DNA of 23,606 nt from a virus (IMGVR_UViG_3300021431_000069:1-23606); one strand, 5' to 3'. Positions 1,903 to 23,606 are shown, counted from the first letter of the stretch. Translations and numbers: made by a program. Notes: generated from the letters alone by a model not told the origin.

Positions 1903-2415
1903 ATGGCTAAAGGCTTCATCAAACTGCACAGAAAAATAACAGAGCATTGGCTGTGGGACGAGAAGCCTTTTGACAAGGCTCACGCTTGGATAGACCTTCT
2001 GTTCATGGCTTCGTGGAAAGATGCGACTCGCGACTTCAAAGGCGACATAATAACACAGAAAAGAGGCGAAGTCCTGACATCCGTCAAGTCGCTTTCGCTT
2101 CGGTGGGGATGGAGCGAGGGAAAGGTCAAAAGATACATCGCGACGCTCGAAGCTGACGGTATGTGTACATCTAAACGACTGCGACATGGACGCCTTCTAA
2201 CCATTGAAAATTACAGCCTATTCCAAGATAGGCGACCATCTGACGGACTATCTGACGGACTATCTGACGGACTATCTGACGACGACAATAGAAGAAAGGA
2301 TAAAGAAAGTAATAAAGAAGAAAAGAAGGACATCGCGGACGAAGCCTCGGAAGGCGACTTCGTCCCGATGCCGGAAGAACTGAAAGAGAAGCTTCTCAAA
2401 GGCTTCAAGATGTAA
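1903..2415 (+). CDS. Putative replication initiator / replisome organiser (N-terminal winged-helix domain, repeat-encoded linker)
   Basis: GFIKLHRKI..HWLW......AWIDLL..A........RGEVLTS...LS.RWGWS.GKV.RYI..LE..GM......GRLLTIENY is typical of Firmicutes phage replication organiser N-domains. The gene sits between the annealase and SSB. Confidence 0.5.
   Translation: MAKGFIKLHRKITEHWLWDEKPFDKAHAWIDLLFMASWKDATRDFKGDIITQKRGEVLTSVKSLSLRWGWSEGKVKRYIATLEADGMCTSKRLRHGRLLTIENYSLFQDRRPSDGLSDGLSDGLSDDDNRRKDKESNKEEKKDIADEASEGDFVPMPEELKEKLLKGFKM
2239..2281. repeat. Perfect 12-bp tandem repeat TCTGACGGACTA, about 3.6 copies, inside the initiator gene (encodes SDGLSDGLSDGLSD)
   Basis: Read directly: units at 2239-2250, 2251-2262 and 2263-2274, plus a partial unit at 2275-2281. 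It is followed by a purine/A-rich stretch to about 2340. Confidence 0.9.
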
Positions 2416-2430
2416 GGAGGAGGACAAACA

Positions 2431-2823
2431 ATGAATAGAGTAAACCTTTGCGGACGGCTGACTAAGAATCCTGATCTACGAGCGACATCGACAGGAATGT
2501 CCGTCTGCTCGTTCACAGTAGCCGTCGACAGACCGAGAAACAAAGACGGATTAAAGGAGGCTGACTTCATTCGGTGCAAGGCTTTCGGCAAGCAAGGCGA
2601 GTCTATCGCATACTACAAGGGTAAAGGCGATATGATCGCCGTCGACGGTCGTCTGCAAACTGGGTCGTATGAGAAGGACGGAATTCGCCATTATACGACC
2701 GATGTAATCGTCGAGAGAGCGGACTTCCTCGCGAAAGAAAAACACGCTCAGATCGACGAAAAACAGCCTTCTGCGATGCCGTCAGGATTTGAGTCAATCG
2801 CGGACGACGATATTCCTTGGTAG
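2431..2823 (+). CDS. ssb: Single-stranded DNA-binding protein
   Basis: OB-fold N-terminus (MNRVNLCGRLTKNPDLR...SFTVAVDR...DFIRCKAFGKQGE...GDMIAVDGRLQTGSY) and the acidic C-terminal tip DDDIPW. Confidence 0.9.
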   Translation: MNRVNLCGRLTKNPDLRATSTGMSVCSFTVAVDRPRNKDGLKEADFIRCKAFGKQGESIAYYKGKGDMIAVDGRLQTGSYEKDGIRHYTTDVIVERADFLAKEKHAQIDEKQPSAMPSGFESIADDDIPW

Positions 2824-2831
2824 GTGCTGAT

Positions 2832-3356
2832 ATGAAGCATTTAGGAGACATCAAAAAAATAAACGGAGCGGAGATCGAGCCTGTTGATGTCGTGACAGGC
2901 GGGTCTCCGTGTCAGGACTTGTCTGTCGCTGGTAAACGCGCCGGACTTGATGGAGAGAGAAGCGGTCTGTTTATGGAGCAGATTCGAGTCATTAAGGAGA
3001 TGAGAGAACATGATAAAGCAAGCGGGCGAACAGATGAGTTTATTCGACCAAGATACATGGTTTGGGAAAACGTCATCGGAGCAATCTCGTCAAATGGGGG
3101 GGGAAGACTTCAGGTGCGTCCTCGAAGAGACGGCGCGGATCGTCGAGCCGTCCGCCTCTATTCCTCGACCTATCGGAAAGTGGACTCCGAGCGGGTGCAT
3201 CATGGGAGACGGATGGTCAATCGCTTGGAGAGTACACGACGCGCAGTTTTGGGGAGTACCCCAGCGAAGAAAACGTATCGCTCTTGTCGCAGATTTTGGA
3301 GGAAGAAGCGCCGCAGAAATACTATTTGTCAGAAAAGGCTTGTCGCGGGATTCTGA
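2832..3356 (+). CDS. C5-MTase fragment: motifs III, IV (PCQ) and VI (ENV), then an out-of-frame Arg-rich tail after the G8 tract
   Basis: The ATG 2832 ORF reads MKHLGDIKKINGAEIEPVDVVTGGSPCQDLSVAGKRAGL...RYMVWENVIGAISSNGGG. The conserved sequence continues in frame 1, not in this frame. Confidence 0.6.
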   Translation: MKHLGDIKKINGAEIEPVDVVTGGSPCQDLSVAGKRAGLDGERSGLFMEQIRVIKEMREHDKASGRTDEFIRPRYMVWENVIGAISSNGGGRLQVRPRRDGADRRAVRLYSSTYRKVDSERVHHGRRMVNRLESTRRAVLGSTPAKKTYRSCRRFWRKKRRRNTICQKRLVAGF

Positions 3357-3432
3357 ACAGAGCAGAGAAGCGGGGGAAGGGTCTTCCGCAGATTCTGAAG
3401 GACGCGCTTCTGAATCAGATTCAGCGGGGTAG
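3010..3432 (+). CDS. C5-MTase fragment in frame 1: post-ENV segment and motif VIII
   Basis: From the G8 tract onward the frame reads GGEDFRCVLEETARIVEP...GCIMGDGWSIAWRVHDAQFWGVPQRRKRIALVADFGGRSAAEILF. The annotated ATG 3010 is probably not a real start. Confidence 0.5.
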   Translation: MIKQAGEQMSLFDQDTWFGKTSSEQSRQMGGEDFRCVLEETARIVEPSASIPRPIGKWTPSGCIMGDGWSIAWRVHDAQFWGVPQRRKRIALVADFGGRSAAEILFVRKGLSRDSEQSREAGEGSSADSEGRASESDSAG

Positions 3433-3469
3433 CTGCGACGCTCAAAATCAGGGGGGGTCGAGAGATTGA
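3062..3469 (+). CDS. C5-MTase fragment in frame 2: TRD-type module (LSQILE...KYYLS...)
   Basis: SLGEYTTRSFGEYPSEENVSLLSQILEEEAPQKYYLSEKACRGILNRAEKRGKGLPQILKDAL resembles the LS.ILE.....KY[YF]LS block found after motif VIII in many C5-MTases. There is no ATG or GTG and no RBS-backed start in this frame. It stops 4 codons after the G7 tract. Confidence 0.4.
   Translation: MGKRHRSNLVKWGGKTSGASSKRRRGSSSRPPLFLDLSESGLRAGASWETDGQSLGEYTTRSFGEYPSEENVSLLSQILEEEAPQKYYLSEKACRGILNRAEKRGKGLPQILKDALLNQIQRGSCDAQNQGGSRD
3096..3103 (+). repeat. Poly-G tract G8 at the frame 3 to frame 1 junction of the MTase
   Basis: Counted directly. With G7 the reading would be ...VWENVIGAISSNGGEDFRCVLEE... in one frame. 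Confidence 0.95.
3451..3457 (+). repeat. Poly-G tract G7 at the frame 2 to frame 3 junction of the MTase
   Basis: Counted directly. With G6 the reading would be ...DAQNQGGREIDSLGKRAGKGALIQWNKSATLGVSQDQTLFVL. Confidence 0.95.
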
Positions 3470-3508
3470 CAGCCTCGGAAAAAGAGCGGGGAAAGGAGCT
3501 TTGATTCA

Positions 3509-4249
3509 ATGGAACAAAAGCGCGACACTCGGAGTATCTCAAGATCAGACGCTGTTTGTTTTATAAAAATGAAAACGGTTACTGAAAAGAGATACGGCGA
3601 ATATCACGAAGACGATAGAAGCGTCACTCTCCGTAACTCCGGCGCGACATATGGGGGGGGGAGCGAGGTACTTATTCTATCAAGACACAGTCGGAGCGAT
3701 ATGCGCGAGAGACTACAAGGGAGTCGGCAGTCAGTATGTCAGAGAGCAGAAGCTCATAGTAGAGGTAAAGAAATGCAAGGCATAAACGGAAGCATCGCTG
3801 GAACGCTCGACAGCAACTACTACAAAGGATGCGGAGAGCGTCAGAACATAGAAAGAGAGGTCGTCTATATGGAAAAAGAAGAAACCGCCGTCAGAAGACT
3901 CACGCCGCTCGAGTGCGAACGGCTTCAAGGGTTTCCGGATGGATGGACTGACATCGGAGAATGGACAGACTCAAAAGGTAAGAAACACAAAGAAGCGGAC
4001 TCTCCGAGATATAAAGCATTAGGAAACTCTATCGCGCTTCCGTTTTGGTTTTGGCTTCTTAGGAGAATATCTGCACAGTACGAACGTCCCGCAACGCTCG
4101 GAAGTCTGTTCGACGGGATCGGCGGCTTCCCGCTTTGTTGGGAGCGGTGCAACGGAAAAGGTACTGCAATATGGGCAAGCGAGATAGAGGAGTTTCCTAT
4201 CGCGGTAACAAAAATTAGGTTTCCAGAGGAGGGAATAAATGAGCTATAA
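3509..4249 (+). CDS. C5-MTase fragment: TRD-like modules, motifs IX-X, then motifs I-II at the C-terminus
   Basis: 246-aa ORF containing ...AGTLDSNYYKG...VRRLTPLECERLQGFPDGWTDIG...YKALGNSIALP...ERPATLGSLFDGIGGFPL...IWASEIEEFPIAVTKIRFPEE. An internal ATG at 3773 has an AGAGG 7 nt upstream. Confidence 0.65.
   Translation: MEQKRDTRSISRSDAVCFIKMKTVTEKRYGEYHEDDRSVTLRNSGATYGGGSEVLILSRHSRSDMRERLQGSRQSVCQRAEAHSRGKEMQGINGSIAGTLDSNYYKGCGERQNIEREVVYMEKEETAVRRLTPLECERLQGFPDGWTDIGEWTDSKGKKHKEADSPRYKALGNSIALPFWFWLLRRISAQYERPATLGSLFDGIGGFPLCWERCNGKGTAIWASEIEEFPIAVTKIRFPEEGINEL
3653..3661 (+). repeat. Poly-G tract G9 at the frame 2 / frame 3 junction of the MTase
   Basis: Counted directly. With G8 the reading would be ...SGATYGGGARYLFYQDTVGAICARDYKGVGSQYVREQKLIVE. 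Confidence 0.95.
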
Positions 4250-4568
4250 GAGAACAATGCGCGGAGTCGACTATCTGATTGAGAACGAACTCGACTACGC
4301 GGCAGAAAAACACGGATCGACCTTCGCCTCGATGCACGAAGGCGATAGCGTAATCCGCGAAGAGTGCGAGGAAGCCGGTCTTGAATTTAACCAAGTAGAT
4401 AAGCATTATCGCCTCATGTGGGAATTTATCAAAGAAAACGACTTCCGTAATGCTCGCAGATATGCTGAAGAAATCGCAAGCCATGCCGAGCGACTCGCTT
4501 GTGAAGCGATTCAAGTCGCGGCGATGGCTCTTAAGTTTGTCGACACAGTAGAGAAAGGAGAAAAATGA
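4239..4568 (+). CDS. Hypothetical all-alpha protein, possibly a MazG-like NTP pyrophosphohydrolase
   Basis: GAGGAGGG RBS before ATG 4239. EKHGSTFASMHEGDSVIREECEEAGLEF resembles the H-E-G...EE..E metal-binding helix of small phage NTP-PPase-like proteins. The assignment is tentative. Confidence 0.3.
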   Translation: MSYKRTMRGVDYLIENELDYAAEKHGSTFASMHEGDSVIREECEEAGLEFNQVDKHYRLMWEFIKENDFRNARRYAEEIASHAERLACEAIQVAAMALKFVDTVEKGEK

Positions 4569-4759: not shown

Positions 4760-5078
4760 ACAGATGGTCTTCGATATTGTGAACAAGTTGGAAAGCGATA
4801 GAGATAGAATCAGGACGCTCGAGAAGACTGTCGAAGAACTCAAAGACGCAAATGCCGGACTTGCTGAAGAGGTCGCAAGGCTCGAGAAGGAAAACACTCG
4901 GTATAAATGCGCCATCGAAGAGATCGAGTCGAGAATCAACCAAAGACGCGCCGATATAAACGAGATGAGCAAGAGACTTTATCAAGTAATGCACACGGCA
5001 AAGGCTTCGCTCAAATTCTGCGAAGATATGGGTAAATGTATCAACACGGAGGAGCACTATGCTGATACTGTCTATTGA
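4740..5078 (+). CDS. Hypothetical coiled-coil protein
   Basis: GAGGAGG RBS before ATG 4740. Heptad-like sequence (IRTLEKTVEELKDANAGLAEEVARLEKEN). Confidence 0.5.
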   Translation: MDERKNRQMVFDIVNKLESDRDRIRTLEKTVEELKDANAGLAEEVARLEKENTRYKCAIEEIESRINQRRADINEMSKRLYQVMHTAKASLKFCEDMGKCINTEEHYADTVY

Positions 5079-7187: not shown

Positions 7188-7580
7188 ATGGGAACAGAAA
7201 CGGCGAACAGGAGAAAAGAACTCCAAGCCTTTTACAATACTCCGGCATGGAGGCGGACGCGGGAAGCATACAGGCAAAGCGTCGGCGGTCTGTGCGAGGA
7301 ATGTAAGGACAAAGGCATTATCAGAGCGGGCGACTGTGTGCATCATGTGATACCGCTATCGCCTACAAACCTGAGCAACGAGAACATCACGCTAAACTAC
7401 GCGAACTTGCGTCTACTGTGCAACGAGTGCCACGCTCGCGTACATCAGGAACGCGGGGACGAGACGAGCGGAGGACGGCGAAAGGGTAAGCCTTTAGGAA
7501 AAAAACGAAAACGGAGATACAAAATCGACGAATTTACTGGAAAAGTCGTCGTCAGTATCCCCCCCACGCGGGAAAAATAA
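7188..7580 (+). CDS. HNH endonuclease (packaging-associated type)
   Basis: CEECKDKG...CVHHVIPLS...N...NLRLLCNECHARVH is a classic HNH/zinc-finger core. It sits immediately upstream of terL, as in HK97-like cos phages. Confidence 0.85.
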   Translation: MGTETANRRKELQAFYNTPAWRRTREAYRQSVGGLCEECKDKGIIRAGDCVHHVIPLSPTNLSNENITLNYANLRLLCNECHARVHQERGDETSGGRRKGKPLGKKRKRRYKIDEFTGKVVVSIPPTREK

Positions 7581-23426: not shown

Positions 23427-23606
23427 CAGGACATCAAAAAGGCTGTGGATCGCTGAGGTCAAATATAAGATGGCTCTTCGCGAGATCACCGGCGCGGCAC
23501 TCTCGGCGGCGACTGGATACAGTCTGAACTATATCTATCGCGCCACAGGCGGAACGTGCGACTCGCCGAAACTGGTCAAAGCGATCAGCGACTATCTCGG
23601 CATCGA
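23413..23606 (+). CDS. N-terminal part of the 69-aa HTH-like protein (runs off the window end and finishes at 141 after wrap-around)
   Basis: GGAGGGAG RBS before ATG 23413. The ORF is open to the end of the window and continues seamlessly into bases 126-141 through the 125-nt overlap. Confidence 0.6.
   Translation, partial: MEKANRTSKRLWIAEVKYKMALREITGAALSAATGYSLNYIYRATGGTCDSPKLVKAISDYLGI
23482..23606. repeat. Terminal direct repeat (right copy), identical to 1-125
   Basis: See the left copy. Confidence 0.95.

Follow-up and report, generated by a model that had tools for sequence, protein, structure and literature searches.

Length-variable poly-G tracts in a permuted, multi-frame C5 methyltransferase locus of rumen and gut phages

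Why should a phage methyltransferase gene carry three long runs of G close together, and what would follow when one of them gained or lost a base? The question is raised by the phage sequence IMGVR_UViG_3300021431_000069:1-23606, which was analysed over its whole length of 23606 nucleotides (nt; hereafter the window, on which all positions are counted). Its plus-strand region 2832-4249 codes for pieces of a C5 cytosine DNA methyltransferase (PF00145, with a TIGR00675 match) and contains a G8, a G7 and a G9 run. Phage methyltransferases shield DNA from restriction enzymes yet expose it to methylation-dependent nucleases, and contingency loci, which are textbook matter in bacterial pathogens, have been described in phages only recently. 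We conclude that the three runs are probably slipped-strand, hypermutable contingency tracts, most likely switches that change which parts of the enzyme are made. The length variation of the tracts is observed at the DNA level and is held with high confidence; we have moderate confidence that this variation is an adaptive switch, and low confidence in any specific scheme of module switching. The reading as slipped-strand repeats is preferred because variation is confined to the tracts, because G runs are enriched specifically in this gene and because tracts occur in all three phases. If it is true, a built-in mutational switch would keep methylated and unmethylated, or differently methylated, genomes together in the population. 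The signal comes from uncultured rumen and gut phages, in which host range and the evasion of defences are difficult to investigate, and automated annotation will routinely label such loci as frameshifted or as pseudogenes.

Poly-G tracts and their length variation

The three tracts lie on the plus strand at the following positions.

3096..3103, plus strand: poly-G tract 1 (G8), Gly-Gly of ..SSNGGEDF.., in the overlap of two open reading frames (ORFs), ORF-A and ORF-B.
3451..3457, plus strand: poly-G tract 2 (G7), Gly-Gly of ..KIRGGRE.. in target-recognition module C; locally in frame.
3653..3661, plus strand: poly-G tract 3 (G9), GGG of ..ATYGGG.., at the boundary of modules D and E.

That no other G run of 7 or more exists in the window had been claimed in the original prediction; the claim holds, and holds also for runs of 6 or more. 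In 1000 sequences simulated with a first-order Markov model from the dinucleotide statistics of the window, G runs of 7 or more occurred with a mean of 0.66 per window. The probability of three or more such runs was 0.03 and that of any run of 9 or more was 0.027 per window, and three runs of 7 or more inside 570 nt were found in 0 of the 1000 simulations. GGG is also the rarest glycine codon of the other genes of the window (33 of 374 codons). We therefore consider the cluster as real and not compositional. With G8, G7 and G9 in coding sequence, the tracts are as long as slippage-prone repeats are expected to be, i.e. about 7 or more G or C in an ORF or just upstream of it.

Each tract had been predicted to stand at a frame switch and to be one G too long, which holds at tracts 1 and 3 but is wrong at tract 2, where the sequence is contiguous at G7. 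At tract 1, homologues matched frame 3 until 3101 and frame 1 from 3100 (tblastn), and removal of one G raised the score of the tract-spanning alignments from 26 to 83 bits. An intact ORF-A of 199 amino acids (aa) with G7 at this tract is present in four related assemblies. The G7 allele was found in the related loci L005, L088, L089, L090 and L095, and the G8 allele in the window and in L091; in the predicted ORFs, G8 disrupts both ORF-A and ORF-B, and G7 repairs both. At tract 2, the peptide ATLKIRGG-REIDSLGKRAGKGALIQ is unbroken in frame 0 at G7, and L006, L013, L052 and L058 align across the tract. All near-identical copies that span tract 2 have G7, and the equivalent site is a repeatedly used tract position across the family. 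The fusion proposed for a G6 form of this tract had to be abandoned, as its junction NQGG-REIDS merges two frames and the real break lies at or near a G4 run at 3426-3429. At tract 3, the G8 form reads ..ATYGGGARYLFYQDTVGAICARDYKG.., exactly the fusion sequence that had been predicted, and this form exists naturally in L089, L090 and L097, as one of three natural alleles (G7, G8 and G9).

Relatives of the locus were gathered by a protein-guided scan of IMG/VR, by exact-protein look-ups and by one DNA scan. The protein-guided scan showed an uninterrupted, 100% identical ORF-A in L005. The near-identical copies were counted as three strains, because the names of the runs and records point to a single multi-animal rumen project; their lengths at tracts 1/2/3 and the records that carry them are as follows.

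Strain W, G8/G7/G9: the window; ERZ12302815 NODE_4714; Logan SRR873597.
Strain X, G7/G7/G7: IMG 3300021387; ERZ12302816; ERZ28612940; AUXO01; SRR873601.
Strain Y, G7/G7/G8: ERZ12302814; ERZ28612978; SRR873598.

Over window positions 2821-4260, the three strains vary, apart from tracts 1 and 3, only at three single bases, and the closest copies differ by at least 3 tract events against 1-2 substitutions in 1.4 kb. The tract lengths of each strain were reproduced in contigs from different assemblers or pipelines. In relatives of 90-95% identity from other projects, tract 2 is G6 (with a total loss of 2 nt at this tract) and tract 3 is G9 in L099, and tract 2 is G9 and tract 3 is G7 in L100-L102. 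The strains and these more distant relatives together indicate that all three tracts are length-polymorphic in nature, with conserved surroundings: G7/G8 at tract 1, G6/G7/G9 at tract 2 and G7/G8/G9 at tract 3. Comparison of tract lengths in related phages, which the original prediction had put forward as a check, therefore gave different lengths at all three sites. Elsewhere in the family, L016 and L018 are one tract G apart (G8/G9) with 0 substitutions over 1324 nt. From this pair, the strains and the family, slipped-strand length variation, as originally proposed, is the best explanation.

Could the extra Gs come from homopolymer over-calling or from a consensus error in this contig? Homopolymers are prone to error, G8 at tract 1 is found only in the window strain, and the coverage of the contig is modest (13x). 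However, the ENA SPAdes contig repeats G8/G7/G9, the Logan assembly of SRR873597, 100% identical over 3127 nt, has G7/G9, and G7 or G8 stands on identical flanks in other samples. The out-of-frame tracts of the family, moreover, deviate both ways, and runs of A7, C7 and T7 at other places in the window sit in open frames where they are coding. An artefact of this contig is thus very improbable, and systematic over-calling of G, which had been raised as an alternative, was excluded since lengths are reproducible across assemblers, differ on identical flanks and err in both directions. As for the other homopolymers said to be in frame, this is so for the C7 at 7559-7565 (..SIPPTREK followed by a stop codon); the A7 lies at 2853-2859 and not at 2864-2870.

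Outside the gene, the backbones of the strains diverge by 2-12%. The methyltransferase cassette (window 2288-4344 compared with L005, L089 and L097) is nearly identical in these otherwise diverged backbones, and we therefore regard it as a recently shared cassette that was passed on by recombinational exchange.

Reading frames of the permuted gene

Motifs IV (GGSPCQDLS), VI (VWENV) and VIII (VPQRRKRI) are located in ORF-A (PF00145, E = 8e-23), and motifs IX-X (VRRLTPLECERLQGFPDGW, GNSIALPF) and motif I (LFDGIGGF) in the ORF at 3773-4249 (PF00145, E = 2e-12). The canonical order from I to X on one polypeptide is not found: the window copy is split over several ORFs and its motifs are circularly permuted (IV-VI-VIII, target-recognition modules, IX-X, I-II), the break falling between motifs II/III and motif IV. 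Homologues with a single ORF keep the same permuted order, for instance the 590-aa ORF of L001 (L001 2881-4653), whose residues 3-59, 136-157, 434-498 and 506-548 correspond to residues 57-113, 149-170, 269-320 and 14-54 of M.HhaI, respectively. The pieces of the window gene are listed below.

2832..3099, plus strand: ORF-A part 1, MKHLGD..VWENVIGAISSNGG, with motifs IV (GGSPCQDLS) and VI (ENV); frame 0.
3010..3469, plus strand: ORF-B, about 145-152 aa, M(IKQAGEQM)SLFDQDTWFGKTS..LSQILEEEAPQKYYLSEKACRGILNRAEKRGKGLPQILKDALLNQ..SRD and a stop; +1 frame of ORF-A.
3100..3432, plus strand: ORF-A part 2, EDFRCVLEE..QRRKRIALVADFGG (motif VIII) with an unconstrained tail; TAG at 3430-3432.
3402..3566, plus strand: target-recognition module C, ..ATLKIRGGREIDSLGKRAGKGALIQWNKSATLGVSQDQTLFVL and a stop; frame 0, no start codon of its own.
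3426..3429, plus strand: G4 run, three-way junction at which ORF-A, ORF-B and module C meet; TAG next.
3509..3661, plus strand: ATG 3509 and module D, KTVTEKRYGEYHEDDRSVTLRNSGATYGGG; frame 2, AAGGAG 10 nt upstream within module C codons.
3555..3566, plus strand: junction of modules C and D, TTTGTTTTATAA; -1 frame offset, no G tract.
3651..3785, plus strand: module E, GGGARYLFYQDTVGAICARDYKGVGSQYVREQKLIVEVKKCKA and a stop; frame 0, fused to module D only at G8.
3773..4249, plus strand: ORF F-G, 158 aa, with module F (INGSIAGTLDSNYYKG..), motifs IX-X (VRRLTPLECERLQGFPDGW..GNSIALPF) and I-II (LFDGIGGF..WASEIEEF); frame 2.

Homologues aligned to ORF-A part 1 by tblastn, and the equivalent part of L001 is the one that matches M.HhaI residues 57-113; in the window, tract 1 pushes ORF-A part 2 into frame 1. 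Frame changes outside the tracts are found at about 3295 (the conserved overlapping +1 ORF), 3426-3432, 3555-3566 and 3773-3785. The original prediction, which described an otherwise intact gene with three lesions, overlooked three frame changes outside the tracts and the +1 ORF, and deletion of one G per tract gives no single ORF. At the G4 run neither ORF-A nor ORF-B runs on into module C; with G5, ORF-A would be fused to it, and with G3, ORF-B. In L006 and L013 frame A continues directly into ..SYTLKIRGG... Module C is predicted to be silent in all three strains, its frame holding no listed ORF. The offset at the junction TTTGTTTTATAA, at TTTGTYTGG, is also present in L038, L058 and L076; L002 and L052 have no frame change at this junction. 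Module D recurs in L058, L038, L050 and L033, and gene callers start at this point in related contigs, and the E-like modules of L013, L037, L042 and L051 are each preceded by a poly-G run of their own. ORF F-G has a GAGG 7 nt ahead of its ATG, which overlaps the stop of module E (ATGCAAGGCATAA). It matched phrog_16427 (E = 1e-44) and has more than 4800 database relatives, the best 120 being of 126-271 aa with 60-97% identity. Homologues of segments C, D, E and F recur in relatives in varied order and number, and the segments are module-like by sequence.

The four lineages with a -1 offset after module C (window 3495-3571; L038 about 2479; L058 about 1390; L076 about 4988) are only about 70-75% identical there. 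In the window and in L058, module C contains an AAGGAG (in its K-G-A codons) and an ATG (in its Q-W codons) in the frame of the next module; L076 has kept the ATG, with a weaker motif (AAGGGT). These elements look like an embedded internal start.

The analysis also brought to light a conserved overlapping ORF within this permuted gene, ORF-B. Its B2 segment, LSQILEE..KYYLS.KAC.GILNRAE.RGK.LP, is in the +1 frame of ORF-A in 77 of 78 homologous loci that contain both gene ends, and the frame is open over about 117-610 codons (typically about 140-180), opening mostly at gene nt 164-173. Among 68 non-redundant loci, the first frame-B ATG is at gene nt 175-184 in 54, and an AAGGAG-like motif is present upstream of the first frame-B ATG in 56. 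Codon-phase entropy before the overlap is that of ordinary single-frame coding, with a third-position value of 1.5-1.7; inside the overlap the third-position variability falls to 0.8-1.3, and past ADFGG the most variable position is phase 1 of frame A (0.9-1.4), i.e. the pattern of frame B. Judged from these values, the selected frame past ADFGG is B and not A, and the constraint on frame A would stop near ADFGG. Relatives of ORF-B numbered 367 in a word-indexed search and 4678 by profile, and in 146 of the best 150 profile hits the match starts no later than residue 20 of the protein. The AlphaFold2 model of ORF-B shows three helices at residues 81-135 (predicted local distance difference test, pLDDT, 86-96) and a disordered stretch for the first 80 residues, so that 55 residues only were modelled confidently. 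ORF-B has no match to PF00145, and a sequence profile search of the PDB found nothing. In L053, a G8 tract at ADFGG (768-775) puts ORF-A and the LSQILE..KYYLS segment in one frame; tracts can therefore also occupy the switch point between ORF-A and ORF-B.

What might slippage do to such a locus? The tracts would be made of GGG glycine codons in a phage C5 methyltransferase locus that is expressed as several ORFs, and replication slippage would add or remove a G and so alter the set of ORFs. At tract 1, G7 would keep ORF-A and ORF-B whole and the G8 of the window would destroy both, which would make it an OFF allele; since the tract is inside the overlap of the two ORFs, a single slippage event would abolish both products. 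At tract 3, the predicted products are of 82 + 198 aa with G7, 91 + 158/182 aa with G8 and 246 aa with G9. With G7, module D would be made alone and the 198-aa C-terminal ORF would start at the ATG directly before the tract; with G8, module D would be joined to module E; and with the G9 of the window, module D would be joined via 38 out-of-frame residues to the C-terminal IX-X-I-II ORF. The earlier suggestion that tract 3 alters the architecture of the product, and is not a mere ON/OFF switch, fits these predicted ORFs. Slippage would occur at a high rate within phage populations, and a lineage might in this way toggle methylation, or the attached recognition modules, on and off, possibly as a hedge against restriction that needs, or is blocked by, 5-methylcytosine.

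The ATG right before tracts 1 and 3 was considered as a tract-coupled start and dropped, as by eye it is not clearly above chance family-wide; an ATG precedes tracts because Tyr and Asn codons (TAT/AAT) precede GGG across the family.

Tract phase across the family

The 78 loci with both gene ends formed the survey set. The gene is a single ORF from motif IV to motif II in 36 of them, has a +1 ORF fused to the C-terminal part in 13 and is fragmented in 29. Their gene sequence, 126.9 kb in total, contains 133 G runs of 7 or more, versus 6 in 448.5 kb of flanks, an enrichment of about 80-fold; C runs of 6 or more number only 2, and A/T runs are fewer than in the flanks. Some genes hold 10-12 tracts, and it is the genes rich in tracts that are fragmented. 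What the tracts encode is Gly-Gly(-Gly), at many different conserved positions, such as ..RMGTGGGNVP.., ..ERAGKPGGGKGILIQ.., ..DARGNGGG..TITGDH.. and ..KGPGG... The phase of each tract was assessed by editing it by 0, 1 or 2 G and scoring the alignments to the 36 intact proteins. By this test, 57 tracts are in frame, 26 are one G over, 16 are one G short and 51 are unassignable; the test is noisy in the module region and misclassifies some tracts (L037 5410), and the out-of-frame counts are a lower bound. In the catalytic region, all 18 tracts of the other loci are in frame, compared with 35 of 74 in the module region; at the 47% rate of the latter, 18 of 18 would have a probability of about 1e-6. 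Tract 1 of the window is the only out-of-frame tract seen in the catalytic region. In all 78 loci the IV-VIII end has no frame break and the IX-X-I-II end is one stretch in one frame, fragmented loci included.

These counts bear on the possibility that the DNA lengths are fixed and that the frames are bridged by recoding, through ribosomal frameshifting on GGG-GGG-G, a quadruplet-reading tRNA-Gly or stuttering of the RNA polymerase on the C run of the template. Every run is indeed G on the coding strand, tracts 1 and 3 of the window are offset in the same way, and the three further conserved frame offsets together with the conserved +1 ORF indicate a family that tolerates or uses frame changes. 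The strand bias is, however, accounted for by the Gly-Gly motifs, and tract lengths differ between otherwise identical genes. A conserved offset in one direction, as programmed frameshifting or transcriptional slippage would have it, is not what the family shows: tracts are in frame, +1 or -1 (57, 26 and 16), sister strains have tract 1 in frame, and the 18 catalytic-region tracts elsewhere are all in frame. In the window there is no tRNA gene, no suppressor tRNA and no Rfam family at gathering score, frameshift elements included, in a check that left local folding around the tracts outside its scope. Recoding is thus quite improbable, and a fixed +1 ribosomal frameshift, which the original prediction had kept as an alternative, is not supported, given the inconstant offset and the missing tRNA and Rfam element.

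A decaying gene is a more serious competitor, and still an unlikely one. The locus would then be a pseudogene or remnant, its poly-G runs being mutational hot spots that arise from GGN-GGN codons and change length neutrally. This would agree with several features of the locus: all strains are broken at non-tract sites, module C is without a start codon, the window copy has no intact catalytic ORF, tract-rich relatives are fragmented over three frames and the phases of module-region tracts are near random. It agrees poorly with the 18 other catalytic-region tracts, which are about equally long and nevertheless all in frame. The family is not simply decaying, because selection holds the tracts of the catalytic region in phase. 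Both gene ends are, besides, without frame break in 78 of 78 loci, the C-terminal ORF has more than 4800 close relatives (60-97% identity among the best 120), and a near-identical gene in backbones 3-12% apart suits recent spread better than decay. The 80-fold enrichment, which uses the rarest glycine codon of the genome, also demands a cause.

We therefore keep slipped-strand contingency tracts as the probable explanation, and several points weigh against it. The evidence on tract length comes from assembled contigs compared between strains, and the near-identical copies count as three strains, seemingly from a single project of sheep-rumen type, and not as eleven independent observations. 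Tract lengths are stable across the assemblies of each strain, so that the rate of switching could be modest. The best natural allele (G7/G7/G8) still leaves at least 4 ORFs with module C silent, and three frame offsets are at short runs (G4, T3/T4 and A3) that are invariant among strains. Relatives with up to 12 tracts have many of them out of phase and have off-frames of normal stop density, and a simple ON/OFF switch, or read-through of out-of-frame cassettes, is therefore hard to reconcile with them. Finally, the activity of a split and permuted enzyme would be argued by analogy, from M.EcoHK31I and from fragments of M.MpeI and M.SssI.

A rule by which out-of-frame modules are kept free of stops, for recovery of the frame at the next tract, was rejected as a general one: all three frames of tract-rich loci contain 2.7-5.7 stops per 100 codons, a density that resembles that of the off-frames of tract-free loci.

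An extended form of the contingency reading, which we consider less likely than not, is a switchable kit, to which a large family of rumen and gut phage C5 enzymes would belong. The permuted enzyme would be made in pieces (the IV-VIII core, the overprinted ORF-B and the IX-X-I-II tail) and combined with a variable string of cassettes, most cassettes and junctions having a separate poly-G switch, so that one phage lineage would continuously yield progeny that differ in their active modules or have none. This would be a viral case of combinatorial phase variation in methylation specificity.

Known systems and minor observations

Phase-variable methyltransferases and poly-G/C contingency loci are well known from Campylobacter, Helicobacter, Neisseria and Haemophilus. 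As in these bacterial loci and phasevarions, a G tract of 7-9 nt lies within methyltransferase coding sequence, a change of one base shifts the frame, and near-identical genomes are polymorphic. The bacterial genes are of the Type III mod or Type I hsd class, whereas the one described here belongs to a phage and codes for a C5 enzyme of the Type II/orphan kind. It has several tracts instead of one, and relatives have as many as 12; the tracts occupy recognition modules and the overlap of two ORFs, and no regulon is implied. The name phasevarion, used in the original prediction, does not suit an orphan-type phage enzyme encoded between ssb and the structural genes, which is no Type I/III mod of the host.

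For phages, PMC12823448 cites Sorensen et al. 2021 for poly-G tracts in receptor-binding genes of Campylobacter Fletchervirus. A 2025 preprint (PMC12633550) reports contingency loci in T2/T4 (T-even) phages, with the DNA-modification gene agt among them, and mentions that the methylase of Bordetella phage BPP-1 has a poly-G tract. The present locus shares with these a phage-encoded homopolymer that yields frameshift variants, and with T2 agt a DNA-modification enzyme as target and a proposed hedge against modification-dependent defence. It differs by hosts of rumen/gut Firmicutes type, by the concentration of about 80-fold in one gene family and by the module-by-module placement of the tracts, and it is known here from sequence alone. 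Multispecific C5 methyltransferases are encoded by the Bacillus phages SPR, phi3T and rho11s. Like them, the present family consists of phage C5 enzymes with tandem short putative recognition modules, variable in number, between motifs VIII and IX, many with a loop of the T-L..G-G type; the permuted order, the several ORFs, the poly-G tracts and the overlapping +1 ORF set it apart.

The heterodimeric C5 enzyme M.EcoHK31I has a beta chain encoded in another frame within the alpha gene, and the first 42 N-terminal residues of this chain are dispensable for activity in vitro (PMC2836561). ORF-B resembles it as a conserved second polypeptide in an alternative frame, and the dispensable N-terminus is paralleled by the predicted disorder of the first 80 residues of ORF-B. 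The likeness does not extend to a small subunit with motif IX: this motif sits in the ORF 3773-4249, and the folded part of ORF-B is predicted to be the helical LSQILEE..KYYLS..GILNRAEKRGK. Among other C5 enzymes, M.BssHII is circularly permuted and M.AquI is split. The permutation point here, between motifs II/III and IV, is different from that of M.BssHII. For M.MpeI/M.SssI, PMC5944983 describes permuted variants made by engineering as well as fragments that complement each other. Other enzymes can be active with a permuted motif order. Targeted literature searches found no paper describing this methyltransferase family. The principle is known. The novelty lies in the scale, as an entire family is concerned and one gene can have as many as a dozen tracts, in the sites of the tracts, which include recognition modules and the overlap of two ORFs, and in the combination with a permuted, multi-ORF enzyme.

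Some observations concern the modules and the phage. In L100-L102 (about 336-478), an insertion of about 140 nt is located exactly at the junction of modules C and D (window 3567), and L057 and L079 are distinguished by a block of 500 nt in the module region together with a G9/G6 tract difference that preserves the frame. It appears to be at junctions that modules are acquired and lost. L086, obtained from a 22-mer metagenome scan, was discarded as an unrelated contig. At 4768-4870 a 25-mer that resembles window 3473-3497 occurs in it three times in tandem, with a spacing of 39 nt, which is probably a chance or repeat-protein match. No close relative of the window was found in the GenBank phage collection, whose nearest relatives are assigned to Ruminococcus, Oscillospiraceae and Faecalibacterium. 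The methyltransferase gene is flanked upstream by ERF and SSB genes and downstream by large ORFs that the original prediction identified as terminase, portal, capsid and tail genes; in line with its statement that the large genes are intact, none of these other genes has an obvious frame break. The window ends in an exact direct repeat of 125 nt (1-125 = 23482-23606), and the assembly is therefore circularly closed, corresponding to a phage genome of 23481 nt.

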